A stretch of DNA of 44,360 nucleotides from a virus (UHGV-0173177), one strand, 5' to 3'; shown: positions 5,353 to 30,572, counted from the stretch's first letter. Made by a program: numbers and translations. The notes: generated by a model not told the origin, from the sequence alone.

Positions 5353-5380
5353 AATTATTTCCTCGGTAAGTTACAAGTGA

Positions 5381-5409
5381 ATAGTACCCTATTATATTGG
5401 GGTGCGCAA
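5381..5409 (-). promoter_or_regulatory. sigma70-like promoter (class 2: TTGCGC-17-TACTAT) with AATAG-N4-CTATT palindrome over the -10
   Basis: - strand reads TTGCGC accccaatataataggg TACTAT tcacttg; near-identical architecture to the promoters at 28979 and 30513. Confidence 0.5.
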
Positions 5410-5516
5410 GTAGTGTGCTAGAATAAGTTTGCGCCTAGTGTCGCACACGAAAAGCGGGTGGTTCCCGTCTGGCGCGTCAACCTTAACCTGTAACCTCTTA
5501 ACCAAAGGATTAAAGA

Positions 5517-5933
5517 ATGAAACTTTCTGATTTTTATTTTGCCGACCGCCACGCTACTGGCACTAAAATGCCTATCCTTCTGCCGAGTGGTAAAGACTCC
5601 GGTGAATGGCTGCAGGTCATTGGCCCCGATTGTGATGCGGGTGTTCGTGCAGGCCGCGCCTACACAACGGCAATTCGACGCCTTACGGAAGAACTTGCGC
5701 CATTAGATAAAGAGTGTGAGGCGCTGAATAACTGGGCGCGCTATAACGATGAGAAGGGCTGGCGGGTGATGGACCTGAACAAGCAGCTCGCTGTCGAAAT
5801 CGTCACCGGTTGGTCATTCGACGAGCCGTTCAGCAAAGAGGCGCTGGCTAACCTGTTCGACCAGTACAGCGGACTGGCAGAAGCCGTGGTTAAACACCAC
5901 ACCGATAGCCGCGAGAAACTCTCGGAAAAGTAA
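5517..5933 (+). CDS. tail assembly chaperone (lambda gpG-like position)
   Basis: 138-aa ORF with AAAGGA RBS, immediately upstream of the tape measure gene; the downstream -1 frame is open from 5909. Confidence 0.5.
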   Translation: MKLSDFYFADRHATGTKMPILLPSGKDSGEWLQVIGPDCDAGVRAGRAYTTAIRRLTEELAPLDKECEALNNWARYNDEKGWRVMDLNKQLAVEIVTGWSFDEPFSKEALANLFDQYSGLAEAVVKHHTDSREKLSEK

Positions 5934-6022
5934 AAGCGCTGTATGAATTTGCGCAATGGTGCTTTGTCGACCGCCACAAACGTAAGCAATTCGACGACAT
6001 CGCGGCAGGCCACCAGGCGGCT

Positions 6023-6295
6023 TTGATTGCAATGGGCGTGATTAAAGAACCGCAGATGAAAGAAGCGACGGGGCCAGAATGCCCCGTTTCTCTTATCGAC
6101 GCGTTCGAGAAATACCGTGCCATTAAATTCCTACAGCGCGAAACAGATGATACTATCGTTATAATCCCGCGCGATGCGCTCAAATGGCAAGATTTGGTAG
6201 CGTTTCGTGATGTCGCCGGTTACGGCATAAGTTTGTTCGAGGCCGAGGTTATCATGGGCTTAGACGGAATATTTGAGGGCAGAGAAGATGGCTGA
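6023..6295 (+). CDS. tail assembly chaperone frameshift extension (gpT-like), probably expressed as a fusion with 5517-5933
   Basis: Frame is -1 relative to the upstream gene and open from 5909 (the frames overlap 5909-5930 around GGAAAAG); track start 6023 is a TTG with no good RBS; ends overlapping the tape measure start. Confidence 0.4.
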   Translation: MIAMGVIKEPQMKEATGPECPVSLIDAFEKYRAIKFLQRETDDTIVIIPRDALKWQDLVAFRDVAGYGISLFEAEVIMGLDGIFEGREDG

Positions 6296-8600
6296 TACGG
6301 CTTCCCTAATTGCCAGAGTAAAAACAGAAGGTGCTGACGTAGCTGCCAAACAGCTTGACGCTATGGCGTCGTCTGCAGACCGCGCGGATACCGCGGTAAA
6401 CAAGCTGACTCCGGACGTTAATAAAGTAAACTCCACCACGTCTAAAGCGGCCTCCGACGGTTTCGCTAAGTTCCGTAACGCCGCAGGGCAGGTTGGCTTC
6501 CAGGTGCAGGACATGGTGGTCCAGTTGCAATCCGGCACGTCTGCATTCGTCGCGATAGGGCAGCAAGGTTCGCAGCTTGCCGGTGCTTTCGGTCCAGGTG
6601 GCGCGGTGCTAGGTGCGGTAATAGCGCTAGCGTCGGCGGTTGGTGGCGTTCTTTACAAATCATTAACTGAGGCTGAGGGTAGCTCAAAAGACCTGGAAGC
6701 CGCACAGAAACAGTTAAAGGACACCTTCCAACAAACGGCATCTGGCTCTCTTGAATTGACAGATGGTCTTATCCAGCTTACCCAAATCAGCAGAGAAGCG
6801 GCGGAGACTCAGCTTGCTCTGGCTAAGGCTAACGCGGACCTTATTGCACAGCAAACAGCTAAAGCCGTTCGTGAGGACGCAGAGTCGTGGGAAACGTGGA
6901 AGGCCTCCACGACATCGGCGATCAGCCAGTATGATGCGCTGGTCTCTAAGGGCGCCGATGTAGGCGACACATTAGAAAAACTAGGCGGCACTTACGAGGG
7001 TAACATCGTAGGCGTCAACATGCTGGCGCAGAATATCGCGGAGCTTAGCAGTAAGTTCGGGGTTAACCGTGACCAGGCGCTGGAGATGATAGCGGCGCAG
7101 AGTGCGTTTAACAAAGAACCAACCGCCGAGAATGCCCGTCGTATCGCCGATGTGTTTACCGACTGGCTAGGTAATACAAAACAGTTGAACCCGGAACTTA
7201 TCCGCCTGACCGACAACGCCAACAAGAACGCCACGGCACTGGAGAACGCGGAGAAGTCAGCAAACGCGGCGGCAGAGGCCCAAAAGAATCTCGGTCGTAA
7301 CGTCAACTCGACCACGCAGAGGTTCCAGGAACAGAACGAAGCTATCGTCAAAAACCAGCAAATTGCCATCTTAAGTGACCGTGAGCGCGTCCGGGCGCAA
7401 GCTGAACTGGATAAGCAGGCGTTTGCTAAACGTGAAGCTGTCACCAAAGAACAGATAGCCGCGTATAACGCTGCCCGTGACGCGGAAGCACAGCAAGACA
7501 TCGCTCGCATCGACGCGACCGAAAAAGCGAAGGCAGACCGCGAGGCTAAATCGAACGAGAAACGTCTGGCGGCACAAGCCAAACGCGAAGAAACTGCAGC
7601 GCAACGCCAGAAGAAAGCCGCGGAAGATTTCCTCGCTACGGTCGACCGAACAACGGGGGATGAAATTTCTCGTATCACAGCGGCAGAAGAGCAGAAACTG
7701 GCGAAACTTGAAGAGTTCAACCGCGCCGGAACAATAAGTCAGCAGCAGTACGAAAACGCCAAAACGCAGATTATGCTCACCGCCGAGCAGGCCCGACAGG
7801 AAGAACTGGATAAGAAAAGAAAAGAAGCCCAGGAAAAGCAGCAGAAAGGTGACGACTTCATGGCTCAGATTATGGGCCAGAACGCCGCTGAGCTTGAGCT
7901 TCTCGACATCCAGGAACAGCAGAAACTGGCGGTCGCAGATAAGTACCGTGAGCAAGGGCTTATTAGTGAGAAGCAGTATCAGGCCGCGCTTAACGCCATC
8001 AACGAGCAATACGCAACCAAGCGTGCCGACGCAACGGCAACCGCCTTCGGTAACATGGCCTCAAACATCGGGTCTGCGTTGGGTGAGGCTTCTGGCGCGT
8101 ACAAGGCATTCGCTATCGTACAGGCCACCATAGCCACGTACACCGCAGCTATCGAGGCGTACAAGTCCACGGCGGCTATCCCCGTAGTCGGCCCGTTCCT
8201 GGCCCCTGTAGCCGCTGCCGCTGCCGTTGGGGCGGGTATGGCGCAGATTTCCGCTATCAGGTCCGCGCGTGAGCAGGGCGGTCAGTTGTCCGCAGGGCAG
8301 GCTTCCACCATCGCAGAACGTGGTAAACCAGAAGTTATCATGCCCGCTGGCGCATCGCGTGTTCGCACCGCACAGCAGATGAAGGAAATTATGGGCCAAA
8401 ACGGGTCTTCTTCCGGCCCATCTAATGTTACCATCGTAAATAACACATCGAGTCAGATTGGCAACGTATCCACTGAGCAAGATGATGAAGGCCGTTTGCG
8501 TATCATCATCGAAGAGCAAGTGGCGGCCTCTTTGCAGAACAGCAACAGTAAGATTAGCAAGGCTCGCAAGGCCACAAGAAACGCGCCGGGGTTCAAGTAA
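6288..8600 (+). CDS. tail tape measure protein
   Basis: About 770 aa, Ala/Gln/Glu/Lys-rich and helical, hydrophobic Gly/Ala-rich segment near the C-terminus; follows the chaperone pair; ATG 6288 overlaps the upstream stop. Confidence 0.8.
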   Translation: MADTASLIARVKTEGADVAAKQLDAMASSADRADTAVNKLTPDVNKVNSTTSKAASDGFAKFRNAAGQVGFQVQDMVVQLQSGTSAFVAIGQQGSQLAGAFGPGGAVLGAVIALASAVGGVLYKSLTEAEGSSKDLEAAQKQLKDTFQQTASGSLELTDGLIQLTQISREAAETQLALAKANADLIAQQTAKAVREDAESWETWKASTTSAISQYDALVSKGADVGDTLEKLGGTYEGNIVGVNMLAQNIAELSSKFGVNRDQALEMIAAQSAFNKEPTAENARRIADVFTDWLGNTKQLNPELIRLTDNANKNATALENAEKSANAAAEAQKNLGRNVNSTTQRFQEQNEAIVKNQQIAILSDRERVRAQAELDKQAFAKREAVTKEQIAAYNAARDAEAQQDIARIDATEKAKADREAKSNEKRLAAQAKREETAAQRQKKAAEDFLATVDRTTGDEISRITAAEEQKLAKLEEFNRAGTISQQQYENAKTQIMLTAEQARQEELDKKRKEAQEKQQKGDDFMAQIMGQNAAELELLDIQEQQKLAVADKYREQGLISEKQYQAALNAINEQYATKRADATATAFGNMASNIGSALGEASGAYKAFAIVQATIATYTAAIEAYKSTAAIPVVGPFLAPVAAAAAVGAGMAQISAIRSAREQGGQLSAGQASTIAERGKPEVIMPAGASRVRTAQQMKEIMGQNGSSSGPSNVTIVNNTSSQIGNVSTEQDDEGRLRIIIEEQVAASLQNSNSKISKARKATRNAPGFK

Positions 8601-10012
8601 TGAGCGACTTATATTTCCCACGTAGCCTTAAGCCAGTGGTATCGAAAGGCTACTCAATGACCAGACGCAACAACGTCTGGAGCGTCGATTTAGCCGGTGG
8701 CGGGGTGCGTCAGGGGCGTGACACGTATTACGACGTGTTTCCGATAAGCGTAACCCTGATTACATCTGCACTAGGGCGGCAGGCGTTCCTGTCGTTCCTC
8801 GAAAAAGTCGATGGTGGTGCGTCAAGTTTCTGGATGGCGCACGACTTCGGCATGGGCATCGAGGATTATCAGGTAACAATCACGTCAACCATCGCCGAGT
8901 CCACAGAAGATGGGATTAACTGGACAATCACTTTCACAGCAACCGCCGAGAAATCCCCGTTCCAGAACCTCGAGAATCAGTGCCTGATTAACAATCTGCC
9001 AGATTTGTATGGTTGCTACGGGGATTGTCTGGGTAGTTTCCTGAAAATATACGCGAACTATGAGACTACGTTCCCGCGCATCTGGAGCGATGAAGGGCCC
9101 GCAGGATACCCGCCGATTAACCTTCTGGCGTCCGCCCTGGATAGCCGCATTGTGTACGACGGGCCGCAGGTTTATTACATCAACCGCAACGGCAATCTTG
9201 TGCAATCAGCCACTAATGAATGGCCCCTAACATTTATTGATGGTGTTGCCGTTGGGCGTGTGCCGCCAGAAAACGCTGCTACAAATTTACTCTATAAATC
9301 TGAGGATTATTCTATTCAAGACGGCGCCTGGAGTAGCGTAAGGGTTAGCGTAAACTACGGCGAAACTGAGGCGCCTACAGGAGAGAATACCGCAGGAAAA
9401 GTTACACCAACAACTGATAACAACACCCATACAATTATACAGACTATTACACCGGACGGTAATTCTGAATATGTGCTATCAGTATTTCTCAAGAGTAACG
9501 GCTACACCAACGCTATGGTTCAGATAGGCATCTTCGCAAGCCAAACAGCGCGCAACGTGGTACATGTAGATTTATCAAATGGGGTTATCACTTCGGCCTC
9601 CGATAGTAGCCGCTGTGGCATTCATATAATCGGCGACGGTTGGTACCGGGTGTGGACGAGAGTATCCACCATTGAATCCCCCACGACAATAAATGCTTCG
9701 GTATACGTAGCCGGTACCCGCGGTAATACTTCATTTGCGGGAGACGGTGTTAGTGCTATATCAGTTTTTGGCGCCCAAATGGAGAAATCTACCAATTCAT
9801 CGTCGTATGTTAAAACCGAAGAAAATTTAATTACACGCCCCGCGGCATCGGCAAAAGTAGCCATGAATGGTGCGACAAGCATCGACATTACATACTCTGA
9901 TGGTTCCACCGTAAACGTGCCCGCAGTAGATAACTACGCCACCATCCCCCAAGCGGATTCGGCGTGGGGTAGTAAATATATCACCCGTATTGATTTTAAT
10001 GTGGACGGTTAA
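8600..10012 (+). CDS. minor tail protein with lambda gpM-like N-terminal domain and long C-terminal extension
   Basis: N-terminal ~110 aa (…AFLSFLEKVDGGASSFWM…) recalls the gpM family; the remaining ~360 aa is an extension; TAATG coupling to the tape measure gene. Confidence 0.5.
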   Translation: MSDLYFPRSLKPVVSKGYSMTRRNNVWSVDLAGGGVRQGRDTYYDVFPISVTLITSALGRQAFLSFLEKVDGGASSFWMAHDFGMGIEDYQVTITSTIAESTEDGINWTITFTATAEKSPFQNLENQCLINNLPDLYGCYGDCLGSFLKIYANYETTFPRIWSDEGPAGYPPINLLASALDSRIVYDGPQVYYINRNGNLVQSATNEWPLTFIDGVAVGRVPPENAATNLLYKSEDYSIQDGAWSSVRVSVNYGETEAPTGENTAGKVTPTTDNNTHTIIQTITPDGNSEYVLSVFLKSNGYTNAMVQIGIFASQTARNVVHVDLSNGVITSASDSSRCGIHIIGDGWYRVWTRVSTIESPTTINASVYVAGTRGNTSFAGDGVSAISVFGAQMEKSTNSSSYVKTEENLITRPAASAKVAMNGATSIDITYSDGSTVNVPAVDNYATIPQADSAWGSKYITRIDFNVDG

Positions 10013-10015
10013 CTT

Positions 10016-10531
10016 ATGAGCCAGGAATCAGTAGAAGCAGCCTACCGCCGTAAGCTGGCGTCTAACCCGGACGGCGAGATGGATTACATCACGTTGCAAA
10101 TCAGCCATCCGTTGCTGTCAAAGACGTATTATCTTGTGCGCGGGCTACAGGAACTTACGGCAACACTGGAGACAGGCGAAACAATAACATTCGAGCCAAC
10201 CCCGATGGAGGCGTCGGGAGCGGCTAACAACAGTGATATGGACCAGACTACGACGTTTACTTTACCGGATATCCTCAATCAACTGGATGATGAGATGGAT
10301 AAAATCCCGATGAGCAATACTGAGTTGCCTAAGTTCGTCTTCCGTCGTTATGTCAGCACCGACCTGTCTTACCCGGCTGACGGCCCTGTCGTGTACGAGT
10401 TACAGGCCATCCACCAGGAGAAGGGCGAGTTCTCCGCGGATGTCGGTACACCTATGCTGAACCAACGAAGCACTGGTATACTGATGACACCTAAAGAGAT
10501 ACCGTTATTACGCGGCCTGTTGACAACATGA
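10016..10531 (+). CDS. minor tail protein (gpL-like position)
   Basis: 171-aa ORF between the gpM-like and gpK-like genes; call rests on gene order and size. Confidence 0.4.
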   Translation: MSQESVEAAYRRKLASNPDGEMDYITLQISHPLLSKTYYLVRGLQELTATLETGETITFEPTPMEASGAANNSDMDQTTTFTLPDILNQLDDEMDKIPMSNTELPKFVFRRYVSTDLSYPADGPVVYELQAIHQEKGEFSADVGTPMLNQRSTGILMTPKEIPLLRGLLTT

Positions 10532-10893
10532 ATATTAACGACTACACGGGCATACCTTACGACTTTCGCAAGCGCAATTGCTGGCATCATGTGCGAATTG
10601 TGCGGGCGGATGCCGGGTTAGAAACCCCGGCGTTCGACGTCACAAGCCCAACGGCAATTAATGAAGCGTTCGACGAAGGACATCGCAACACGAAGGGGCT
10701 TACGAAAATAGATAAGCCTGAAAACTTCTGTGCGGTGCTTATGGGGTATCGCCGTGGTGGTCGTATCGTGTGGCACGCAGGAGTTTACTTCGACGGGATG
10801 GTTAGCCATTGCGAGCTTGCTTCTCGTCAGGTACGGCTTGACAGGCTGGCGGACCTCAGAGACACGTACACGGAGATTGAATTTTGGCGATAA
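10528..10893 (+). CDS. tail assembly protein, gpK-like, with possible NlpC/P60-type Cys/His motifs
   Basis: 121 aa; Cys in RNCWHHVR and His in WHAGVY; ATGA coupling to the upstream gene. Confidence 0.45.
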   Translation: MNINDYTGIPYDFRKRNCWHHVRIVRADAGLETPAFDVTSPTAINEAFDEGHRNTKGLTKIDKPENFCAVLMGYRRGGRIVWHAGVYFDGMVSHCELASRQVRLDRLADLRDTYTEIEFWR

Positions 10894-13439
10894 TCCTGCA
10901 CTACACGCGAAACGCTGATGGCGCTTTCGACCGTACAAAACACGTCGGGATGCCGATGGAGTTTGTCGTTAACCGTATCCCGGACGGCGTGCCGGTGCGC
11001 GTCTACCTCGGCGAAATTGGTGATGATACCGACGTAACTGACGACTTCGACGCACTCAAAGACGAAGACGCCGTGTACCACATTATAGAGGGTGCTGGTA
11101 GCGGGGCGCTTGGTGCCGTTAGTAAGGTGTTTGGTTTTATCCTTAAGCCAATCGCTAAGTTGTTTGGTCTGAACATGTCCGCAAACGCCAACTATACGGC
11201 GACTAACAACCAGACAACATCACCAAATAACAGCCTCACAGACCGCTCAAACAAACCACGCCCTTACGAGCGCTCCTATGACATCTGCGGGACCGTGCAG
11301 ACGATCCCTAATGACCTGATGCGGACGTATAAGGCGTTCAACTCCACTGGTGCTTTGCTGGAATATTCGTACTATGACGCAGGGCGCGGACATCTGCATA
11401 TTGAGGCTGATGGCGTCACAGAGGGCGACACCCTGATAAGCGACATCACAGGTTCCTCTGTTGCCATATATGCACCGTATACGTCACTGAACAACACCAC
11501 ATCGCCGCAACTACAAATCGGCGACGTCATTGACCAGAAACTCTATGTGACATACTCCAACGACGACGTTGACGGTATTGTACTGAAAGCACCAAACGAC
11601 ATCGGGGCCAACCCAAGCTCCGGTGGAACCGCCAAACGTATTTCGACCACCGGCTACCTATATGACCCGTCGGGTGATTCTGCTTTTTCTGAGTTTCTTA
11701 GTGTTGGTGATGTCGCAGTGTTGAGCAATTTCGACGTTAAGGACGTCACTAACCTAAACGGCTCGTTTGAAGTTTTATACGTCGACGACTTTGAGGTTCG
11801 GTTGTACGTCGGGGATATAGGTAACTGGGGCAATCTTAATAACGGAGAGACTTACGCACTTACAGAGCGTTCTGACACGTTTATCGCCCCGAGCAACACC
11901 TATGACGTATCTCTTACGGACTGGTATTACATGGTGCGCGGAGAGGTTGACCGGGTGCTTGCTAACGTTGCCGGGCAGAACGGCCTCTACAAATACGACG
12001 GGGGCTATAACCGCACCAGTGTAACGGTGGAACTCCAGTACCAGATGATTGACTCCCAACGCAACCCTTTGAGCGACATTTACACGGTACAGGCTACAAT
12101 TACAGGCAACAGTACGGATTACGTCGGTACGTCTATCTACGGGCAGTTGCCGACCGCGTCTCGTTTCCGCGCCCGCATGCGCCGTATAACTAATTTCGAC
12201 AAGGACTACGACGGTACAGTAAGCGACGAGATAACGTTCATCAACCTGTACGGTCAGTCACTGGACACTACCCCGCATTACGGCAACCGAACTACAGTAC
12301 ATTGCGCCCGTAAACAGACACCACGCGCCGCCAGTATCGATAACCCTGAACTGCGCATGATTGCTACAGAGATGTGCTATAAATACCTCGGCAATGGGGT
12401 ATTCGATACAGTAATGTCGCCAAACACTCAGGCCGTGCAGTCGCTAATCAGACTGGCTCGCGACCCGGCGGTGGGCAATCTGGAACTGACAACGGCAAAC
12501 ATGGATAAGTTGCTTGCCGTGCAGGAAGAAATTGAGTCCTATTTTGGCAGTGAATTAGCCGGACAATTCTGCTACACGTTCGACGACTACGATACCACGA
12601 TGCAGGACATAGTTCAGACCATAGCGGAAGCCGTATTCTGTACTGCGTACCGCAAAGGTGCAGATATTATGCTGCGATTCGACCGTCCGGTTGCGGGGCC
12701 TGAAATGGTGTTCACCCACCGCAGTAAGACGACCGGTACGGAGAAATGGACACGCACGTTCAATGATTCGACAACCTACGATAGCTTGTCGTTCTCGTAC
12801 ATCGACCCGGATACTAACGTACAGGAAACGATTTATATCCCGGAAGAACTCGGCGCAAACACCGAGGAATACGAATCGAAGGGCGTACGTAACTATCAGC
12901 AGGCGTATTGGCTGGCGTGGCGGCGCTACCAACGCAACGCGTTAAGTAAAGTTGTCGTAGAGTTTGAAGCTACCGAAGAAGGTGCGCTCGCTACCCCAGG
13001 CGGCGTAATCAGCGTTGTTAAAGGTTCACGTATTGCGCCGCAGGATGGTTATGTTGTTGCCGTTAATGGGCTCACACTTACGCTGTCACAGCCAGTTACG
13101 TTCACACCCGGCGACGACCACTCAATCATCCTCAAGAAGCGCGATGGCTCCGTGCAGAGTATCTCGGTTATCAAAGGAAGCCACGACCGCGAGGTGATTA
13201 TGCTATCCGCGCCAGAGGAAGCGATTTATACCGGGAATAGCGCACTAAAAACTGAGTTTTCATTCGGCAACGAAGCAAGGCATAATGCACAGAGGATAGT
13301 TGTCTCTTCAATAGACCCTGGTGATGACCGCACGGTTAAGATTACAGGTTACAACTATGACGAAGGTTTCTACAAATACGACGGCGTCGCGCCTTTCGGT
13401 CGCGGTTTCTCCGACGGATTCAGCAACGGTTTTTATTAA
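10884..13439 (+). CDS. tail tip / central fibre host-specificity protein (gpJ-like)
   Basis: ~850-aa ORF after the M/L/K-like genes; track start is a TTG overlapping the upstream stop; first in-frame ATG is at 10950. Confidence 0.5.
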   Translation: MAIILHYTRNADGAFDRTKHVGMPMEFVVNRIPDGVPVRVYLGEIGDDTDVTDDFDALKDEDAVYHIIEGAGSGALGAVSKVFGFILKPIAKLFGLNMSANANYTATNNQTTSPNNSLTDRSNKPRPYERSYDICGTVQTIPNDLMRTYKAFNSTGALLEYSYYDAGRGHLHIEADGVTEGDTLISDITGSSVAIYAPYTSLNNTTSPQLQIGDVIDQKLYVTYSNDDVDGIVLKAPNDIGANPSSGGTAKRISTTGYLYDPSGDSAFSEFLSVGDVAVLSNFDVKDVTNLNGSFEVLYVDDFEVRLYVGDIGNWGNLNNGETYALTERSDTFIAPSNTYDVSLTDWYYMVRGEVDRVLANVAGQNGLYKYDGGYNRTSVTVELQYQMIDSQRNPLSDIYTVQATITGNSTDYVGTSIYGQLPTASRFRARMRRITNFDKDYDGTVSDEITFINLYGQSLDTTPHYGNRTTVHCARKQTPRAASIDNPELRMIATEMCYKYLGNGVFDTVMSPNTQAVQSLIRLARDPAVGNLELTTANMDKLLAVQEEIESYFGSELAGQFCYTFDDYDTTMQDIVQTIAEAVFCTAYRKGADIMLRFDRPVAGPEMVFTHRSKTTGTEKWTRTFNDSTTYDSLSFSYIDPDTNVQETIYIPEELGANTEEYESKGVRNYQQAYWLAWRRYQRNALSKVVVEFEATEEGALATPGGVISVVKGSRIAPQDGYVVAVNGLTLTLSQPVTFTPGDDHSIILKKRDGSVQSISVIKGSHDREVIMLSAPEEAIYTGNSALKTEFSFGNEARHNAQRIVVSSIDPGDDRTVKITGYNYDEGFYKYDGVAPFGRGFSDGFSNGFY

Positions 13440-15693: not shown

Positions 15694-15717
15694 AAGGCCC
15701 CTAACGGGGCCTTTTTC
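15694..15717 (+). terminator. intrinsic terminator (copy 2 of a reiterated module), probably bidirectional
   Basis: AAGGCCCC-TAAC-GGGGCCTTTTTCTT; the flanking 36 bp almost match the terminator at 3183-3218; the convergent - strand ORF ends at 15718. Confidence 0.7.
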
Positions 15718-18952: not shown

Positions 18953-19237
18953 TTAACTATAATAGCTCGCTATTAGGTCGTCAACCTGTTTAAACGAACC
19001 AACGACAAAAACATTTGCACCACGTTTACGCATCCGCTCATGCTCGCGTAACTGGTGCGGGTCTGGCTTCGTGTTTTCGTCTTTTTTAACCTCGACGAAC
19101 CAGATGATGCCGCCGGGGAGAATTACCAGCAGGTCGGGAGCGCCGGAGCGCCCCTCGTAGGAAAGTTTACGAACGAGGCCCCCAATGGCCTCGAATCGCT
19201 CTTTTGCGTATTTCTGAATCTTGCCTTCCGGTGTCAT
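18953..19237 (-). CDS. VRR-NUC domain nuclease
   Basis: 94 aa; …GAPDLLVILPGGIIWFVEVKK… matches the PD-(D/E)XK core typical of VRR-NUC proteins. Confidence 0.6.
   Translation of the reverse strand: MTPEGKIQKYAKERFEAIGGLVRKLSYEGRSGAPDLLVILPGGIIWFVEVKKDENTKPDPHQLREHERMRKRGANVFVVGSFKQVDDLIASYYS
18956..18984 (-). promoter_or_regulatory. sigma70-like promoter (class 1: TTGACG-17-TATAGT) with AATAGCTCGCTATT palindrome in the spacer
   Basis: - strand reads TTGACG acctaatagcgagctat TATAGT; lies within the last codons of the VRR-NUC gene. Confidence 0.45.
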
Positions 19238-20289: not shown

Positions 20290-22464
20290 CTACTTGGCGT
20301 ATCTGTACATTTCGCTGCCTTCTGCAACCAAAGGGAAGCCTTCTGCCCATTCCGGTAATTCGCACATCAACCGCTCAAGCTCTGCGACATTGTATTCCGG
20401 TAAATCTGGCGTCTCGCAGATAATCTCATCGTGTACGTGAAGTACAATCGGGTAGCCGTTTGCTTCTACGTTCAGCAGTGCATTAGCCAGCAAATCACGG
20501 CACAGCGCCTGAGTACAGTTTTCCACCAGTTTACCGGAGTAGGTGTACTGGAATCCCCACTGACGAGTTAACTGGTTTTCTCCCTGATACTTGATGCGCA
20601 CGTTAGTAGACACCTTTCCATCTTCGTCTGTCTCTTTCGACACGCTCAATCCGACGCCGGGGTAGGACATAACGCGGCCAGACGGCAACGTCATACGCAA
20701 CCACCAACCGGCGACCTTGTTGCCGTTGTTGTCCGTTTCTACGTTGCGCGAAAACTTAACACCCCGCGGCCCTGCAGTGAACTCTTTACCAGGATTGCGG
20801 ATGGCCGCCATAGCCGCGTCTTCAATATCGCGCCAGAATTGTACTATCGCCGGATTGGCCTCTCGGTACATGCGTTTCAGAGCGTCACATGTTCTCCATA
20901 CTTTCTTATCAAGTATATATGATGGTCGGTCATCCTTTTCACCAGGACGCGGTGGTCGCTTGGCTTCCTGAATACGCGCCCACTCGTAACCGCGTGCGGT
21001 AGCCGACCAAATATGGTCCGGGAAAGTTCCGTCTAAAGTGCGGGTCATATCGTTCAAATCAAGACCTAAGTTTTTAGCAAACGTGACGAAAGCACCGACA
21101 CCCCCCGCGTAGCCGAGGCCCAGAACCATTGCTTTGGCTATTTGTCTTTGGTCCTTTGTTACATCCTCATAAGCAACGTTGAACACCGTTGATGCGAGTT
21201 TCTTATACACATCAACCCCGTTTACAAATACTTCGATTAAATCGTCTTCGCCCGCCAGCCACGCAAGCCCACGGCCTTCAACGTTAGAGTAATCGGCGAC
21301 GACAAACTTGTGCCCAGCTTCCGGTATGATGCAGCTACGTACCGTCGATGCCGTTAGCTTGGCTACATCGAAACGGCGATGAGCGCGACCCTTAAGTAAC
21401 GCTGAAATTCCTTTATCCAGTTCATCATCGTGATAGTACCCGCGCGCCAGGTTCTGTGGCTGGAAGCCTTTACCTGCAAATCGTAACGTACGCTTTGCCC
21501 CGCCATACTGTATGCAACCACGGCGACGGTCGTCAGAAGAACGGCCCAACAGCAGTGGGTTATATTTAGTTGATGCAGTTGAAGCAGCCCCGAGGCGCAT
21601 TTCGATAATCGTACGCGCATCGTCCGGTAAATCATCATCTGCCAGCAGGTCATTCAGCGTCGACTTCTGCGCGTTGTGGATACGGTGCGCCGGTGCGAGT
21701 TCGCGAAGAATCGGAAGGAAGTCTTTACCAGTAAGAGAGCCGCCGTATTTGCGCTGGGCTTCTTCCTGTAACTGTGCCTTGTGCTTCTCCACGGCCTCGA
21801 TAGCGGCTTCCGCCAGTGCGACGTCAACCTTAAACCCGCGGTCGTTGATTAACTGGTCAAGTTCCAGTACACGGTCTTCGAACTCGGAGTTACCCCACCG
21901 CGGCAGCTTATGGAAGACTTCACGCATCGCAGTGATGTCGCTCACGGCGTACTTGATGAACAGCGCCCACTCGTCCGGGTGTGTTTCTGCGGTGTAGCGG
22001 CGGATTTTGTAATTCTTCGGTGTCGGTTTAGAGAAACGCTGAATCAGCGCCTTGCCGCGTTTATCTTTTGCATTGTCAGCATACACGCCAAGCACTTCAC
22101 ACAGCGCATCAAGTGAACCCGGCAGCGCGTGACGAAACGCCCAAATCATCGTATCAATGGTGTTGCTTACGGGAATATCAAAGCCCCAGCAGTGTTTCAT
22201 GATGAGCCTGTCGAACATTGAGCCGTTGTGCCACACCATCTTAATACGACTGTTCGGCTTAACCAGGCGGCGCAGTGCGCGGTGCAAATCACCCGGCATG
22301 TCGCTGCCGTCGGTGCAATCCCATACCCGCACAGGCTCGTCGTCAAAAGCATATGTGCAGATAAGCACTTCGGTAGTCGGGTGTTCGGCGTAAGCGTAGG
22401 AGCCGACTTTCTTTAAATCGATGCCGCTGTAGGTTTCAAAGTCTAGATAGAGTAATTCTGGCAT
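20290..22464 (-). CDS. family A DNA polymerase with 3'-5' exonuclease domain
   Basis: ~724 aa; N-terminal exonuclease motif LYLDFETYS; large polymerase-domain-like C-terminal region; track TTG start at 22494 lies in the upstream terminator, so start trimmed to ATG 22464. Confidence 0.8.
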   Translation of the reverse strand: MPELLYLDFETYSGIDLKKVGSYAYAEHPTTEVLICTYAFDDEPVRVWDCTDGSDMPGDLHRALRRLVKPNSRIKMVWHNGSMFDRLIMKHCWGFDIPVSNTIDTMIWAFRHALPGSLDALCEVLGVYADNAKDKRGKALIQRFSKPTPKNYKIRRYTAETHPDEWALFIKYAVSDITAMREVFHKLPRWGNSEFEDRVLELDQLINDRGFKVDVALAEAAIEAVEKHKAQLQEEAQRKYGGSLTGKDFLPILRELAPAHRIHNAQKSTLNDLLADDDLPDDARTIIEMRLGAASTASTKYNPLLLGRSSDDRRRGCIQYGGAKRTLRFAGKGFQPQNLARGYYHDDELDKGISALLKGRAHRRFDVAKLTASTVRSCIIPEAGHKFVVADYSNVEGRGLAWLAGEDDLIEVFVNGVDVYKKLASTVFNVAYEDVTKDQRQIAKAMVLGLGYAGGVGAFVTFAKNLGLDLNDMTRTLDGTFPDHIWSATARGYEWARIQEAKRPPRPGEKDDRPSYILDKKVWRTCDALKRMYREANPAIVQFWRDIEDAAMAAIRNPGKEFTAGPRGVKFSRNVETDNNGNKVAGWWLRMTLPSGRVMSYPGVGLSVSKETDEDGKVSTNVRIKYQGENQLTRQWGFQYTYSGKLVENCTQALCRDLLANALLNVEANGYPIVLHVHDEIICETPDLPEYNVAELERLMCELPEWAEGFPLVAEGSEMYRYAK

Positions 22465-23151: not shown

Positions 23152-23214
23152 AGTTCAGCCCTCATTAAGTTTAGATTTTCAGTTTACTCCGGGAACTGCC
23201 CGGCCAGTGATTTA

Positions 23215-23243
23215 ACTATAATAGTTAGCTATTCAGGTGTCAA
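23215..23243 (-). promoter_or_regulatory. sigma70-like promoter (class 1: TTGACA-17-TATAGT) with AATAGTTAGCTATT near-palindrome in the spacer
   Basis: - strand reads TTGACA cctgaatagctaactat TATAGT; about 60 nt upstream of the SSB-like gene start. Confidence 0.55.
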
Positions 23244-25481: not shown

Positions 25482-25512
25482 TTGTTTCTCTCCTCTCGTT
25501 TGGTATGGGCTA

Positions 25513-25541
25513 ACTATAATAGTGAACTATTCACATGTCAA
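25513..25541 (-). promoter_or_regulatory. sigma70-like promoter (class 1: TTGACA-17-TATAGT) with AATAGTGAACTATT palindrome in the spacer
   Basis: - strand reads TTGACA tgtgaatagttcactat TATAGT; a second operator-like site (AATATGGTACTATT, 25562-25575) lies 44 bp away toward the HTH gene. Confidence 0.55.
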
Positions 25542-25605
25542 TGGGCTTTTCTAAAATAATTAATATGGTACTATTCACATATCAACTAACTAAGGAGTAA
25601 TTGTC

Positions 25606-25821
25606 ATGCAACCATCTGAACTAGGCATCCGTGTAGAAAAACGCCGTAAAGAACTCGGCATCTCCCAGCGCCGTCTGGCGGTGCTGACCGGGGTTTCCCA
25701 GGGCGCAATTAACCAGCTGGCACTTGGGGTAACCCAGGACGTCCGCCCGGCAACGCTGTTTAAACTGGCGGAAGTGCTGGAGGTAGACGCCAAGTGGCTG
25801 GCGCTAGGTGAAGGGGCTTAA
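25606..25821 (+). CDS. XRE-family helix-turn-helix transcriptional regulator (Cro/CI-like)
   Basis: 71 aa; LGISQRRLAVLTGVSQGAINQLALG is a classic XRE HTH; AAGGAG RBS; sole + strand gene, divergent from the 25481 operon and convergent with the primase gene. Confidence 0.7.
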   Translation: MQPSELGIRVEKRRKELGISQRRLAVLTGVSQGAINQLALGVTQDVRPATLFKLAEVLEVDAKWLALGEGA

Positions 25822-25838
25822 CGCCCCTTTCTTTTTAC

Positions 25839-28079
25839 CTATTCCAAATCCTCTTCTGTCACTACCAGCATTTCATTCGGTTCGTATATTGTCTTCGGTC
25901 TTAGTCTATCCCCTATTCTTTCAGGTATACGATACGTTCTCGGTACTACTTCGCCATTAGCATCACAGCCTAGCATTAGTTCACCATCTTTCAGCATTTT
26001 ATCAAGATGGGTGTTAGTCACAGAAAAGTCACCGGAACGGGCCACTATCTGCTGCTGAGTAAAACCGCGACCTGTGTCATCTGACTGTTGCAGGTCTTCC
26101 AGTGCCGAAAGTATCGACTCCTTCCTTACTTCATCCCTGCCGCGTTTAACTTCTTCCTTTACTTTTTGTTTACCTTCGTTAGTTAACCCTTCTTCCCGCT
26201 CCTTCTCCTCGTCAGTTTTGAACGGCTCGAAGCCCCACGGCATCAGAACAAGCGCCTTGTGTGGTTCCGGCAGGTCGAGGTTTACGATTGTGCCGTATTC
26301 CTCTGTGCTGCCCAGGAACTCAACAGCACGGTACTCTTTCGGCGGTGGTGCTTCACGGAACTGTACAGACTCCAACACCATGCCAACCGTTTTCTGTTGA
26401 GGGCCGTGCTTAAATTTTGAGTGGTATACGTTTATCTGACGGTCGGTTGCGCGTTCAATTGTCAGTTCCACGTCGACCCCAGCATACAACGCCCCGCTGC
26501 CACGGGCTTTCTTTCCACCTTTCGGTGTATGGTGGACAACACCCACCGCGGCTTTGGTTGCGTCGCGTACTTCTTTCAGGATGGCGATAACCTTACCCAT
26601 GCCGATTGCCGTTGATGAACTGTTCTCGTCGAACTTATCAATCGTCAGGGCCAGTGTCTGGTTGAGAGTATCGAACGCGACCATGCCGATGGGTTCGCCA
26701 CCCGCAGTTTCTCGCATTAGCTTAATCAGGCTTTTCAGTTTGCCAACTTCGCCCATATCGATGACATGTACATAATATTTACCTTCCTCGCCGTATTTAG
26801 CCGCGAGTGCATCAATACGGGTGCGTGTGGCAGCACCGCCCTCGCCGTCAATATAGAAATGGTGGCAACGCTGTGTATCAGCGCCGGCAAACCGGTACCC
26901 GGCGGCGCTCAGGTACATCATCCCCAGCGTATAGAAGGATTTGTACGTGCCGGATTCCCCGACGATGTCCCAGATGCAATCCGAGGGCATGTACCCTTCA
27001 ACGACGAAATCAGCCTTTACCGGTTCAGGTAACTCGTCCTCCTCTGAGCCTTCGTCATCTTCCAGGTCGTCCAGGCTGCATGAAACGGACTCTCGCGCAC
27101 CCCAACCGATAGCCTCTGCTACTTCACTGAATGGCAGCCCGGTCGCATCGCACGCATACTTCCACACCTCTTTCGGTGACATGCCTTCGGTTGCCGTAAT
27201 GTCGGTGTCGTGAATCATGGTTACGTTTGGCGCGGCGTAACCCTCTCGCGGAAAGCACAGCAGGAAATCATCCGGGCGTGGCGTCGGGTCGCTGTAGTTT
27301 TCTGCGTGTTCTGGTGTGGCAGGCATTTTAAGGCCGCGGGGTGTCATAATACCGCCATACTCGAATGCCAGTGCTTCAAACGCATCGGTAAACGCAGTGC
27401 GCAGTTCTTCCGGTATCTGGTAATCCGATGCGCTGCTAACGTCAACGGCGGGGATGCCTTCCAGCAGTTCTTCCGGGTCAATCAGGTCGTTGCGGCGCGA
27501 CCAAATAACGGTAGAGCCAACCGGCGGCAGGTACATCGGCTGCGACAGAGTGAACCCGCTGCGGTCAGCGCCCATGCCTTTGAAGAAGTGCTCGAGCAAT
27601 CCGTGGCGAACGCGGATGATGTCGCCACCTTCGACCGGGCGACCAAGCGGCATAACGACGCGAAAGCGCGGTGACCCATCGGTATGTGATGCCGTGGTAT
27701 AGAGGCACATGGCCAGGCGGCTGCGCTTAACCAGGTGCACAGCTTCCTGATACTCTTCCGGCGTTGCACTGTCGAAGTCCAGGTAGGCCAGTGATGATTT
27801 GCTTACAGAGGCGTCGCAGCGATAGAAGAAGCCTTTACGCGCTTGCTTAAAGTCCCCGGTTTCCTGGTCTTTTACGGTGCTGTGTGTTGAGTCGCACGCG
27901 GCTGTGATATAGCCGGGCGCGGTCTTAGGGTTAACCCCATCACGAACAGCATCGAGCGGCCGGATTAACTCTTTCAGGTCGTCCAGTGTTGCCGTGTGTG
28001 TGGTTCTGACGTTTATATCCTTTTTCTCTGCCCGCGCGTTGCGACGAGACCACGAGTAGGATAAAATTACATCGGACAT
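25839..28079 (-). CDS. primase-helicase (N-terminal primase-like region, C-terminal RecA-fold helicase domain)
   Basis: 746 aa; Walker A GESGTYKS within a RecA-like region; Walker B-like VVHHT; large N-terminal domain typical of phage/plasmid primases. Confidence 0.65.
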   Translation of the reverse strand: MSDVILSYSWSRRNARAEKKDINVRTTHTATLDDLKELIRPLDAVRDGVNPKTAPGYITAACDSTHSTVKDQETGDFKQARKGFFYRCDASVSKSSLAYLDFDSATPEEYQEAVHLVKRSRLAMCLYTTASHTDGSPRFRVVMPLGRPVEGGDIIRVRHGLLEHFFKGMGADRSGFTLSQPMYLPPVGSTVIWSRRNDLIDPEELLEGIPAVDVSSASDYQIPEELRTAFTDAFEALAFEYGGIMTPRGLKMPATPEHAENYSDPTPRPDDFLLCFPREGYAAPNVTMIHDTDITATEGMSPKEVWKYACDATGLPFSEVAEAIGWGARESVSCSLDDLEDDEGSEEDELPEPVKADFVVEGYMPSDCIWDIVGESGTYKSFYTLGMMYLSAAGYRFAGADTQRCHHFYIDGEGGAATRTRIDALAAKYGEEGKYYVHVIDMGEVGKLKSLIKLMRETAGGEPIGMVAFDTLNQTLALTIDKFDENSSSTAIGMGKVIAILKEVRDATKAAVGVVHHTPKGGKKARGSGALYAGVDVELTIERATDRQINVYHSKFKHGPQQKTVGMVLESVQFREAPPPKEYRAVEFLGSTEEYGTIVNLDLPEPHKALVLMPWGFEPFKTDEEKEREEGLTNEGKQKVKEEVKRGRDEVRKESILSALEDLQQSDDTGRGFTQQQIVARSGDFSVTNTHLDKMLKDGELMLGCDANGEVVPRTYRIPERIGDRLRPKTIYEPNEMLVVTEEDLE

Positions 28080-28137
28080 GTTGTATTTCCTTCAGCAAGT
28101 AATTTGGCCTCGGCGTTCACCGCGTCGGGGCTTTCTT

Positions 28138-28371
28138 TTATTCCAGGTCTTCTAAAGTAGCGGTCATTCCGCGAACTTCAGCAACGGCGCTATATTTCCC
28201 GCCAACATTTTTCACGACACCAGATTTAACCAGCACCTTCAACGACCCTTCAATAATGGCTGAACTATAGTACTTAAAATAACTACGGCGCAAGTCAATA
28301 ACGCTACACGACCCTTTTTTACGTGTTAACGAAACGACTGCTGTAAATACGCGTGACTGAAACTCGGTCAT
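28138..28371 (-). CDS. hypothetical protein (77 aa)
   Basis: ORF with ATGA coupling to the upstream HTH gene. Confidence 0.4.
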   Translation of the reverse strand: MTEFQSRVFTAVVSLTRKKGSCSVIDLRRSYFKYYSSAIIEGSLKVLVKSGVVKNVGGKYSAVAEVRGMTATLEDLE

Positions 28372-28538
28372 TTCACGTTCTCCTTAATCCATGCTTCCAC
28401 TTTCTCCGGGTCAAACGTACCTGGCTGACGACGGCCCATAATGCGGATGCAGCAATCCGGGAACTTCCCGCTCTTTAACCAGTTATTCAGCGTGCGACGG
28501 GTAACCCCGATACGCTCAGCTACCTCATTCTGTGTCAT
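28368..28538 (-). CDS. small helix-turn-helix DNA-binding protein (AlpA/excisionase-like)
   Basis: MTQNEVAERIGVTRRTLNNWLKSGKFP is an AlpA-type HTH; start trimmed to ATG 28538 with GAGGG RBS (track start 28571 is a TTG). Confidence 0.55.
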   Translation of the reverse strand: MTQNEVAERIGVTRRTLNNWLKSGKFPDCCIRIMGRRQPGTFDPEKVEAWIKENVK

Positions 28539-28570
28539 TCTCAAACCCTCATTATTAGTTAACGAAACCA

Positions 28571-28599
28571 AGTATACATTGCGAATAATGGGAAATCAA
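28571..28599 (-). promoter_or_regulatory. sigma70-like promoter (TTGATT-17-TATACT) for the leftward HTH/primase operon
   Basis: - strand reads TTGATT tcccattattcgcaatg TATACT, about 35 nt upstream of ATG 28538. Confidence 0.5.
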
Positions 28600-28978
28600 A
28601 CATAATCGCACCTATTGACATTATGAAAATCTTCGTTTAAGGTGCTTCTATATCTTAGTTACTTTGATTCCTGTTCACCTTGTAAAACCGCTTAAAACGC
28701 AGCTGCGCGCAGCGCAAGCAAAGTGTTAAGCGAAAGTTTACTGAACACGAGAATTATCGTAACTTTCCTTCCTAAGTATCTCCGGTTGCCCTGGGCAAGC
28801 TCTATTCACATCGGCAGCATATCTCTTAAGTATCTGATTTTCTTAATGTGCCGTAGATTCGCAACCGTAAAAATGTAACGATTATTGGGCAGGCTTAGGG
28901 CCTGCCCTTTAGTTACCAAGTAATAAGAATAAAGGCACAACCTTCCCAGAAGAATCACAACGGCAACGTAACTATCTC

Positions 28979-29007
28979 TTGCACGCCCCAACATAATAGG
29001 ATACTAT
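28979..29007 (+). promoter_or_regulatory. sigma70-like promoter (class 2: TTGCAC-17-TACTAT) with AATAGGATACTATT palindrome over the -10
   Basis: TTGCAC gccccaacataatagga TACTAT tcactt, followed by leader ACGAGAcagAGGAG and ATG 29042. Confidence 0.55.
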
Positions 29008-29041
29008 TCACTTATCGAAACGAGACAGAGGAGTGAGGGTT

Positions 29042-29233
29042 ATGTTTAAGAAGGGTCAGTTGGTTAAATGCGCCGACGGTAAACACGGTGTGATTGAATT
29101 AAAATCCGCTTTATTTCCGGGAGAGTACCTAGTTACTGTGCAAAAGGTGAGAGGAGTAAATTCGGCGGCATACGTAGCGGAAGAGAATTTAAAACTCATC
29201 GGCAACAATTTTAAATTCAAAGAGGTGAAGTGA
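29042..29233 (+). CDS. hypothetical early protein (63 aa)
   Basis: ATG 29042 with GAGGAG/GAGGG RBS (track start 29033 is a GTG); first gene after the promoter at 28979. Confidence 0.5.
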   Translation: MFKKGQLVKCADGKHGVIELKSALFPGEYLVTVQKVRGVNSAAYVAEENLKLIGNNFKFKEVK

Positions 29234-29442
29234 TGGAAGAATTAATTTGCGTGAAAAGTAAATTAACGGAGTTTAAGCCGGGGCGTTTATACAGCAGTTA
29301 CCCAACACCTGATTACGATTATGTTATTGATGAAACAGGAGGCGAATGGGTAGTTGACCAGTTCGGAGATGATGAGTTCGGTATATTTGATGGTGGACTG
29401 AGAGCCTCATTCACAACGGCATCGGATAAAGAGGCGAAGTGA
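29230..29442 (+). CDS. hypothetical early protein (70 aa)
   Basis: ATGA coupling to the upstream gene; acidic small protein. Confidence 0.5.
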   Translation: MMEELICVKSKLTEFKPGRLYSSYPTPDYDYVIDETGGEWVVDQFGDDEFGIFDGGLRASFTTASDKEAK

Positions 29443-29645
29443 TGCAAGAATTATTTGAAGAACTGAAACATCATGAACTAGAAGAAGTGCATTTCATAAT
29501 TGGCCATTACAAAGTCACTTTATTAGACGGTACAACCATTTCTTCAGGGGCAAGTGACGATTTGTTGAAATTTTTACGTTTACTACGAACGGCATCGAAT
29601 CATGATGCGAGTGTCGACGACTCTGAGGGAGGTTGCCGTGAATAA
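29439..29645 (+). CDS. hypothetical early protein (68 aa)
   Basis: ATGA coupling to the upstream gene. Confidence 0.5.
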   Translation: MMQELFEELKHHELEEVHFIIGHYKVTLLDGTTISSGASDDLLKFLRLLRTASNHDASVDDSEGGCRE

Positions 29646-29699
29646 GTTTGTTTTAATCATCAGCGCCGTTTATGTGGTGCACGCGTTGCGGGGGTTAGT

Positions 29700-29855
29700 A
29701 TGAGAATCCGTATAACTGACCGCAGGCTTATAGATTTCGGTATCTCGGTAGGTGATGTTTTTCTGGCGTTCAGCAGCAACCATTATGGTTTTATGATTGA
29801 GTACAAAGGGTCGTTATTGTTCGTGTATCGGGATGAGTGCGAGGTTCTGGTATGA
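29700..29855 (+). CDS. small hypothetical protein (51 aa)
   Basis: Hand-translated ORF below the track cutoff; stop overlaps the next ATG (ATGA at 29852). Confidence 0.3.
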   Translation: MRIRITDRRLIDFGISVGDVFLAFSSNHYGFMIEYKGSLLFVYRDECEVLV

Positions 29856-29995
29856 GAGAAGCATTTGAACGGTGGGCCGTCATCGAGGGGCTGCCTGTTA
29901 ATAAGGGTTCGAAGAAAGAGTACCTGAACGTTAAGACGCGTCTCGCGTGGCGGGCGTGGAAAGCTGGTGTGCAAGCTGTGATGAATACGAGGTGA
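29852..29995 (+). CDS. small hypothetical protein (47 aa)
   Basis: Hand-translated ORF MREAFERWAVIEGLPVNKGSKK… filling the gap before 29999. Confidence 0.3.
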   Translation: MREAFERWAVIEGLPVNKGSKKEYLNVKTRLAWRAWKAGVQAVMNTR

Positions 29996-29998
29996 GAT

Positions 29999-30199
29999 AT
30001 GAGTAAGTGGATTAAGTGCAGTGAGCAGATGCCCGCTCCTTTCTCTCATGTACTTGTGACCGATGGGGGAGAGGTTGAGATTAAATGGTTCGATGATGAT
30101 TCGGATGAGTGGGATAGTTGGGATGAATTCAACTCTGTCATAGACAACGAGGATATAACGCACTGGAGGAAATTGCCTAAACCGCCGAAACTGGTGTAA
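29999..30199 (+). CDS. DUF551-like small phage protein
   Basis: MSKWIKCSEQMP…VLV…W…THWRKLPKPP matches the recalled W/P-rich DUF551 pattern. Confidence 0.45.
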   Translation: MSKWIKCSEQMPAPFSHVLVTDGGEVEIKWFDDDSDEWDSWDEFNSVIDNEDITHWRKLPKPPKLV

Positions 30200-30334
30200 C
30201 AGGTCAATAGGTTACTATTTGACTGAGTGACTTACGCTGCTACACAGCAGCGTACAACTTTAGATTAGTGTCGTCAAAAAGCGACACTTTCACCGAACGC
30301 AACAATCGAAGCGACTATTGCAGGAGATGCAACA

Positions 30335-30505
30335 ATGAAACTGAATGACATCGTAACCTGGACCGGTAGAAACGGAGAAAAGCGATTCGGGCTTATTGTT
30401 GCGTCAGACGGCAACAAGTACCGTGTTATGCGATGGCGTCAGTGGGCGAGACGCCCGAGATACTACTGGATTCGCAGCGAACGATTATCGTTAAAACACC
30501 AATAA
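30335..30505 (+). CDS. small basic protein (56 aa)
   Basis: Hand-translated ORF with AGGAG RBS 8 nt upstream of ATG 30335; Arg/Trp-rich. Confidence 0.3.
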   Translation: MKLNDIVTWTGRNGEKRFGLIVASDGNKYRVMRWRQWARRPRYYWIRSERLSLKHQ

Positions 30506-30512
30506 AATTTAC

Positions 30513-30541
30513 TTGCACGCTAGGATAGAATAGGCTACTAT
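30513..30541 (+). promoter_or_regulatory. sigma70-like promoter (class 2: TTGCAC-17-TACTAT) with AATAGGCTACTATT palindrome over the -10
   Basis: TTGCAC gctaggatagaataggc TACTAT tcattt, followed by leader ACGAGAGGAGAGACAGAAG-ATG (30573). Confidence 0.55.
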
Positions 30542-30572
30542 TCATTTACACGAACGAGAGGAGAGACAGAAG

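Follow-up and report, generated by a model that had tools for sequence, protein, structure and literature searches.

The 434 Cro protein binds 14-bp dyad operators whose outer bases are conserved and whose centre is variable, and the system formed by 434 Cro, the 434 repressor and their OR and OL sites offers the nearest described counterpart of the arrangement found in the virus genome UHGV-0173177. The window, that is, the whole 44,360-bp stretch analysed, is the complete genome of a Kagunavirus-like siphophage of the subfamily Guernseyvirinae, about 90% identical to Escherichia phages phiWAO78-1 and Bas73, and it carries a dispersed 14-bp palindrome, AATAG-N4-CTATT, together with a gene for a 71-aa 434-Cro-like protein of the XRE type. 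The palindrome is read here as the operator of a phage-encoded homodimeric helix-turn-helix (HTH) repressor, most probably this XRE protein, with a rough probability of 0.6 on the sequence evidence. The likeness to 434 lies in a 71-aa, single-domain HTH_3 protein with the same five-helix fold, in 14-bp dyad operators that keep the outer 4-5 bp, vary in the centre and overlap core promoters, and in a perfect and an imperfect operator (here O1 and O2) flanking the regulator's own promoter, which diverges from a second one. Unlike 434, however, the phage has no CI partner, integrase or lysogeny switch, its half-site is AATAG rather than ACAA, and its predicted operators occur singly, scattered among about 11 promoters of a virulent phage, instead of forming two triple clusters; O1 and O2 are separated by a distance that drifts between 43 and 45 bp among genomes, whereas the 434 sites are adjacent, and binding is predicted. 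The CI and integration functions of a lambdoid lysis-lysogeny switch are missing, since neither an integrase nor a CI-type repressor occurs in the gene map of the window or in annotated relatives; the phage is strictly lytic and has a Cro-like protein without CI.

Other described systems share some of these features. The controller (C) proteins of restriction-modification (R-M) systems, such as C.AhdI and C.BclI, are small XRE-fold dimers that rank among the top structural matches to XRE, and at their own promoter they bind two dyads, the distal one strong and the proximal one weak, which produces a delayed switch. A comparable order is seen here, with the perfect O1 centred at about -39.5 and the imperfect O2 at about +4.5 of the candidate XRE promoter. 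However, C-protein operators are adjacent, are bound cooperatively as a tetramer and belong to a single operon, whereas O1 and O2 lie about 44 bp apart with a spacing that varies between genomes, and the predicted regulon is genome-wide. The stoperators of mycobacteriophages L5 and Bxb1 also serve one phage repressor through many (>20) dispersed, near-identical short intergenic sites. They are nevertheless 13-bp asymmetric sequences, oriented with transcription, at which a CI-like immunity repressor stops elongating polymerase in lysogeny, whereas a lytic phage carries the sites described here, which are symmetric and placed on core promoters.

The same sequences, for example TAATAGGATACTATTCACTT, have been reported as promoters, seven per genome and at the same gene junctions. 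The same 20-mers were tabulated as PHIRE "conserved promoters" in phage Golestan (PMC7203180), and the fBC-Eco01 paper (PMC9825357) lists them as "phage RNAP promoters", giving the consensus tgAATAGTa-ccTATTat-T. Neither paper mentions the dyad, the overlap with sigma-70 hexamers or a Cro-like gene, and a Jerseyvirus genome paper (PMC5217580) states that Cro-like genes are absent. Full-text literature searches for the motif sequences or for operator studies returned nothing beyond the PHIRE reports. The motif is thus already listed in the literature, and its reading as the operator of a Cro-like repressor is new; the Cro-type repressor/operator mechanism is itself conventional, and it would here be deployed genome-wide in a lytic phage.

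Enrichment, promoter context and conservation of the palindrome

The original prediction described seven copies of the palindrome as a genome-wide promoter family at which a dimeric DNA-binding protein would occlude RNA polymerase. All seven positions hold the sequences given for them, although an exact copy at 30206-30219 and degenerate copies at 33585, 39213 and 40842 were overlooked. Against dinucleotide shuffles, AATAG-N4-CTATT occurs in 7 exact copies (0.03 expected) and, with one mismatch allowed, in 12 (1.0 expected). In an unbiased enrichment scan of all spaced 5-mer dyads, AATAG-N4-CTATT ranked first among the palindromic ones of the window (n=7, p=2e-15). The enrichment is restricted to the inverted repeat spaced by exactly 4 nt, all other spacings and orientations giving 0-1 copies, and the pentamer AATAG itself is not enriched (75 copies vs 83 expected). 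Non-coding sequence makes up 6.7% of the genome, yet it holds six of the seven exact copies; the remaining one (18961) falls at the end of the Holliday-junction resolvase gene, within its last codons and still 39 nt short of the gene that follows. Four of the five one-mismatch copies (25562, 33585, 39213 and 40842) likewise lie at gene junctions, at a promoter or terminator, and the fifth (12530) lies inside a tail gene, as chance predicts. The term genome-wide really covers the early and middle promoters, of which nearly all the strong ones carry the palindrome, and a few junctions of the late region. A counterpart of the 39213 copy is tabulated as a PHIRE element in Golestan (PMC7203180).

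The class-1 promoters proposed for these sites were recovered independently. The three best sigma-70 matches of the whole window in a consensus scan (11/12, 11/12 and 10/12) are the three class-1 sites (TTGACA/G-17-TATAGT, minus strand), in which the palindrome begins 4 nt past the -35, lies at about -25 to -12 and has the first T of the -10 as its final base. Class 2 (TTGCRC-17-TACTAT) is present as described, with the palindrome covering the TACTAT -10 at about -19 to -6, and the class-2 block is highly conserved throughout, from -38 through the leader. A third class is added here, comprising 33585 and 40842, in which the degenerate palindrome lies at about -40 to -27 and includes the -35, TTGACT, of a promoter with a 17-bp spacer; the Jerseyvirus Ent1 carries AATAGTTGACTAGT at the place orthologous to 33585. 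The palindrome thus overlaps core elements of the predicted promoters, including that of XRE itself, where O1 abuts the candidate -35. By position, the 28995 promoter is predicted to drive the small early genes from 29033 and the 5380 promoter the hyp108/exonuclease island, and the 30529 promoter region forms a 48-nt direct repeat with the 28978 promoter. The leader motif said to be shared by several operons is also real: ACGAGA-N0-4-GGAG occurs five times (25490 on the minus strand, 29020, 30554, 33632 and 35595) against 0.37 expected, starts about 5-8 nt into the predicted transcripts and is found again in the leaders of Jerseyvirus, phiEap-2, Tsm2 and AH01. An RNA-level explanation of the palindrome was considered and rejected, as the class-1 sites lie upstream of the transcription start, no Rfam hit was obtained and the stems are only 5 bp long.

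Since a footprint built from selected sites is circular for the half-sites, conservation was assessed again with gene-anchored regions. With the XRE start codon as anchor, the 38 Kagunavirus loci compared, representing 35 distinct sequences, all keep the exact O1, with the central tetramer in six forms, and all keep O2 with the same imperfect left half (AATAT-N4-CTATT). At the SSB promoter, Kagunavirus and Jerseyvirus, whose SSB proteins are 70% identical, have the -35, both half-sites and the -10 in common, and differ in the centre and the flanks. In Pantoea phage AH01 both half-sites have changed together, to AATAC-N4-GTATT, of which there are 5 exact copies vs 0.047 expected (p=2e-9), and no AATAG-type copy is present. 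These variant dyads occupy the orthologous class-1, class-2, O1 and O2 positions, including a site at 21793 orthologous to 5380, and the ACGAGAGGAG leader is kept as well. Among all AATAN-N4-NTATT sites, positions 5 and 10 are G..C in 7 of 9 sites of the window, 4 of 5 in Jerseyvirus Ent1 and 2 of 2 in Serratia phage Tsm2, with C..G absent from all three, whereas AH01 has G..C in none of 9 and C..G in 5 of 9. Tsm2 carries two exact and two one-mismatch AATAG-type sites at class-1 and class-2 promoters, and Enterobacter phage phiEap-2 has 10 sites within one mismatch (0.8 expected). In Cornellviruses a variant, AATAC-N4-CTAAT, is enriched at orthologous promoters (2-3 exact copies vs 0.03-0.07 expected), and it could be either a diverged operator or partly promoter sequence. 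A dyad-preserving change at numerous scattered sites is what is classically expected of a homodimer that co-evolves with its operators, and the concerted switch in AH01 is the most telling evidence that the palindrome would be an operator rather than a promoter element.

Candidate binding proteins and rival explanations

The conserved half-sites, the variable centre, the joint switch in AH01 and the overlap with the -35, spacer or -10 all favour the dimeric DNA-binding protein that had been proposed for the palindrome. The dyad is 14 bp long, its half-site centres are separated by 9 bp and its middle is not conserved, which gives it the geometry of a Cro/CI-type operator. The XRE product belongs to Pfam HTH_3 (E=2.5e-12, above the curated cut-off), its best PDB sequence match is 434 Cro, also of 71 aa (E=2.2e-6 over 63 residues), and its model (pLDDT 78) fits the 434 repressor, 434 Cro, including the Cro/OR1 complex 3CRO, and P22 C2 with TM of 0.70-0.79. 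SinR and R-M controller proteins are matched as well. By family, closest sequence and fold, the protein is thus a Cro/C1-type HTH domain, and it consists of the DNA-binding domain alone. An XRE orthologue stands beside the O1/O2 region in all 11 lineages compared and is the only HTH gene so placed. In Bas73 the gene is intact at 34027-34242 and unannotated, a short opposite-strand open reading frame (ORF) being annotated there instead. In its recognition helix, the residue before the invariant Gln is Ser in Kagunavirus, Jerseyvirus and Tsm2, which have AATAG, and Thr in AH01 and Cornellvirus, which have AATAC; with few independent events, this correlation is only suggestive.

Two phage genes, at 25606-25821 (XRE) and 28368-28538 (HTH_17), had been named as candidates for the binder. 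Of these XRE is favoured: it is homologous to 434 Cro, two putative operators flank its gene and every motif-bearing lineage has it, whereas HTH_17 is missing from the motif-bearing Tsm2, AH01 and phiEap-2. Roughly, XRE is the probable binder and HTH_17 an improbable one, what remains falling to a host factor or an unknown one. The discrimination between the two rests on divergent Guernseyvirinae genomes: the phyletic pattern at first favoured HTH_17, which is confined to Kagunavirus and Jerseyvirus and, like the exact motif, is lacking in Cornellviruses, and the inclusion of more lineages reversed this.

Several observations weigh against the XRE reading. The recognition helix differs between Kagunavirus (SQGAINQ) and Jerseyvirus (SQSLITH) while their half-sites are identical, and the helices of Jerseyvirus and Cornellvirus are similar while their motifs differ. 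In Kagunavirus and Jerseyvirus, HTH_17 accompanies the exact motif and matches it in conservation, with 87.5% identity between the two genera compared with 48% for XRE. In an RNA-seq time course of K1B4 (PMC12645636), the HTH_17 orthologue (gene 008) is one of four genes classed as "early" and the XRE orthologue (gene 004) is classed as "middle"; these classes are coarse peak-time bins that fit a delayed repressor, do not prove one and do not decide between the two proteins. As for the sites, position 5 varies among those of phiEap-2, the Cornellvirus variant lacks clean dyad symmetry, no promoter can be recognised at the 30206 copy, and class-2 promoters reach only 7/12 of the sigma-70 consensus and were not called by the consensus scan.

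The best surviving alternative, though an unlikely one, is that the binder is the 56-aa HTH_17 protein, a MerR-like winged helix made early and acting in the promoter spacer in the manner of MerR-family regulators, with XRE in another role. HTH_17 is present in exactly the two genera with many exact copies of the motif, its recognition helix is invariant between them in parallel with the half-sites, and its early expression in K1B4 agrees with such a role. Its nearest folds, besides BldC and phage Xis, include the DNA-binding domain of RacA, which binds a 14-bp inverted repeat. However, these fold matches are weak (E 0.04-1, pLDDT 76), and the protein comprises a winged HTH and one helix only, whereas MerR-type regulators have a C-terminal coiled-coil dimerisation/effector domain. 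Its own promoter (TTGATT-17-TATACT, 28599>28571) carries no operator, and the spacers of the palindrome-bearing promoters are 17 bp, rather than the 19-20 bp typical of MerR-activated promoters. A profile search found no HTH_17 in Tsm2, phiEap-2 or AH01. A search outside the subfamily for phages with just one of the two proteins gave none, HTH_17 homologues being confined to Kagunavirus and Jerseyvirus and the indexed protein searches giving close relatives only.

More doubtful still is an enterobacterial host transcription factor that would bind the palindrome and couple early transcription to host physiology, as might be suggested by a motif common to phages of E. coli, Salmonella and Serratia. 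The TrpR operator (ACTAG-N4-CTAGT) and the ATAG/CTAT elements of OxyR are superficially similar, and the 33585 class-3 site has an ACTAG half; nevertheless, OxyR sites have an N7 spacing and TrpR requires a CTAG core, so that neither fits in spacing or core, and we know of no host factor with the consensus and spacing of AATAG-N4-CTATT. Furthermore, Jerseyvirus and Cornellvirus both infect Salmonella and yet differ in motif, and the dyad-preserving variant of AH01 speaks for a reader that is encoded by the phage and evolves fast, rather than for a conserved factor of the host.

It is very improbable that the motif is itself a promoter element, whether of a phage RNA polymerase or as an unusual spacer or extended -10, with no separate protein involved. 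The PHIRE-based reports do name these 20-mers promoters (PMC9825357, PMC7203180), the right half-site adjoins the -10 or overlaps it, and some of the motif (TACTAT, CTATTATAGT) is promoter sequence. However, no RNA polymerase gene is present in the window or in any annotated relative compared, and every ORF of >300 aa in the window maps to an annotated tail, head, replication or packaging protein, leaving no large ORF unaccounted for. The palindrome also occurs in three registers relative to the -35 and -10 hexamers (centres at about -18.5, -12.5 and -33.5), a spread that a fixed polymerase contact could not accommodate; in class 1 the half-site next to the -35 matches no known sigma-70 determinant and is nonetheless invariant, and in AH01 the half-sites switch jointly with dyad symmetry preserved. 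Least probable of all, the conserved blocks might be module boundaries that promote homologous recombination between mosaic phages, the palindrome being incidental, in line with a first gene after the 28995 promoter (29033-29233) that is 48-56% identical among Kagunaviruses next to a promoter/operator/leader block (28950-29032) near-identical up to the start codon; this leaves the dyad symmetry, variable centre, exclusive N4 spacing and concerted half-site switch unexplained, and recombination at conserved regulatory blocks, which this mosaic boundary suggests, is an expected by-product of conservation.

Gene layout and neighbouring elements

The gene map of the window was obtained by carrying over the Bas73 annotation by tblastn, and its blocks are listed in Table 1 together with the sites discussed above.

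Table 1. Coordinates of putative operators, predicted promoters, leader motifs and genes in the window
Feature	Position	Strand	Remarks
Putative class-2 operator	5380..5393		Over the -10 of TTGCGC(5409-5404)-17-TACTAT(5386-5381), leftward
Putative class-1 operator	18961..18974		Spacer of TTGACG(18984)-17-TATAGT(18956), minus; 3' end of Holliday-junction resolvase gene
Putative class-1 operator, SSB-operon promoter	23220..23233		Spacer of TTGACA(23243)-17-TATAGT(23215), minus; gene-anchored cross-genus alignment
Leader motif ACGAGAGGAG	25490..25499	-	About +8 of the class-1 transcript
Putative operator O1, AATAGTGAACTATT	25518..25531		Spacer of leftward class-1 TTGACA(25541-25536)-17-TATAGT(25518-25513)
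Candidate XRE promoter	25530..25557	+	TTCACA-16-TAAAAT, 10/12; back-to-back with the 25541 promoter; consensus match only
Putative operator O2, AATATGGTACTATT, one mismatch	25562..25575		Over the start/-10 region of the candidate XRE promoter
XRE/HTH_3 gene	25606..25821	+	71 aa, 434-Cro-like, putative repressor
Terminator hairpin	25810..25830	+	Closes the monocistronic XRE gene
HTH_17 gene	28368..28538	-	56 aa, MerR-like winged helix, Pfam HTH_17; unlikely binder
Putative class-2 operator	28995..29008		Over the -10 TACTAT 29002-29007; -35 TTGCAC 28979-28984; rightward
Leader motif ACGAGAcagaGGAG	29020..29033	+	
Orphan exact copy	30206..30219		No -35 at 17 bp; conserved hairpin follows
Putative class-2 operator	30529..30542		Over the -10 30536-30541; -35 TTGCAC 30513-30518; rightward; A/T-rich tract upstream
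Leader motif ACGAGAGGAG	30554..30563	+	
Putative class-3 operator, degenerate, ACTAGTTGACTATT	33585..33598		Overlaps the -35 of TTGACT(33590)-17-TATATT(33618)
Leader motif ACGAGAacGGAG	33632..33643	+	Downstream of the class-3 promoter
Degenerate copy TATAGTATGCTATT	39213..39226		Just past the portal-gene terminator, 7 nt into the head-morphogenesis start region; -35 not evident
Putative class-3 operator, degenerate, AATAGTTGACTTTT	40842..40855		Overlaps the -35 of TTGACT(40847-40852)-17-TAAGCT(40870-40875)
Structural and lysis genes		+	
Replication/recombination block	25481 down to 15721		Leftward
HTH_17-p77-helicase/primase operon	28538 down to 25839		Leftward
Small-gene clusters	Starts 29033, 30573, 33652		Rightward
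Small island within tail region	5352 down to 3388		Leftward

Further elements were recorded near these sites and at other gene junctions. The hairpin ACGCTGCT-acac-AGCAGCGT, within 30206-30252, is conserved after the orphan palindrome, and in Ent1 (about 38260-38313) the same hairpin precedes, rather than follows, a related site. In the Cornellviruses SP-031, VSiP and SE1, which lack HTH_17 and p77, the helicase-primase gene is inverted and placed after XRE, and the XRE promoter has ATTAS-N4-GTATA in its spacer. The leader of the gp2.5-like SSB gene (23152-23212, minus strand) carries AATCACTGGCCGGGCAGnnCCCGGAGTAAACTGAAAA, whose conservation extends from Kagunavirus as far as Cornellvirus and phiEap-2, despite an identity of only about 42% in the SSB protein; the small hairpin is thermodynamically ordinary and has no Rfam match, and the leader sequence may be a site of translational autoregulation. 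Immediately upstream of the 40842 class-3 site and promoter lies a TTATTCC cluster (40790-40835), with direct copies at 40794 and 40803, 9 bp apart, and an inverted GGAATAA at 40827. A similar cluster adjoins motif copies in phiEap-2 (about 11800-11900), the dyad GAATA-N2-TTATT is enriched in SP-031 and phiEap-2, and the cluster may be the site set of a second regulator. No convincing gene occupies the roughly 420 bp (28572-28994) that separate the divergent HTH_17 operon from the 28995 promoter; within them the homologue of Bas73 gene 55 is broken by a stop codon and hairpins lie at 28703-28717 and 28887-28907, and Ent1 has a 1-kb unannotated gap at the matching place. A bidirectional terminator, AAGGCCCC-N4-GGGGCCTT, is used twice, at 3191-3210 and 15694-15713, both of them strand-switch points, and the related AGGCC/GGGCC dyads rank near the top for enrichment in each genome of the subfamily.

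Predicted regulation and its implications

If XRE is the repressor, host sigma-70 RNA polymerase would fire after injection from the class-1 promoters into the leftward replication/recombination operons, from the class-2 promoters into the rightward small early genes and the exonuclease island, and from the two class-3 promoters. The class-1 promoters are near-consensus and would thus need no activator, and an operator in the spacer, over the -10 or over the -35 is in a repressing position. XRE would meanwhile be produced from its own weak promoter, back-to-back with the 25541 promoter, and the accumulating dimer would fill the operators at about -25 to -12 (class 1), -19 to -6 (class 2) and -40 to -27 (class 3), thereby excluding RNA polymerase. 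O2, over XRE's own promoter, would add negative autoregulation at higher XRE concentration, and its conserved defect (AATAT, 38/38) is what would be expected of a deliberately weaker autoregulatory site. The net outcome would be a coordinated turn-down, or a dosage compensation, of early and middle transcription.

A more far-reaching scheme, which is itself doubtful, is that a single "Cro-only" timer might run most of the sigma-70 programme of the lytic phage. XRE bound at O1 would then repress the divergent replication promoter and activate its own from about -39.5, this activation being pure speculation, and O2 would later shut XRE off. The three registers and the conserved mismatches might grade the shut-off, and the switch from G..C to C..G might define "immunity groups" that insulate co-infecting relatives from one another.

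Members of the Guernseyvirinae (Kagunavirus, Jerseyvirus and their relatives) rank with the most frequently isolated phages for use against E. coli and Salmonella in therapy and biocontrol, and their transcription programme is essentially uncharacterised. Reading the palindrome as an operator would turn it into a concrete map of about 11 regulated promoters and would account for the conserved spacer sequences. The change from AATAG to AATAC would represent a natural series of regulator/operator co-evolution for specificity changes in a minimal HTH protein, and the same sites would supply well-defined repressible promoter/operator parts.

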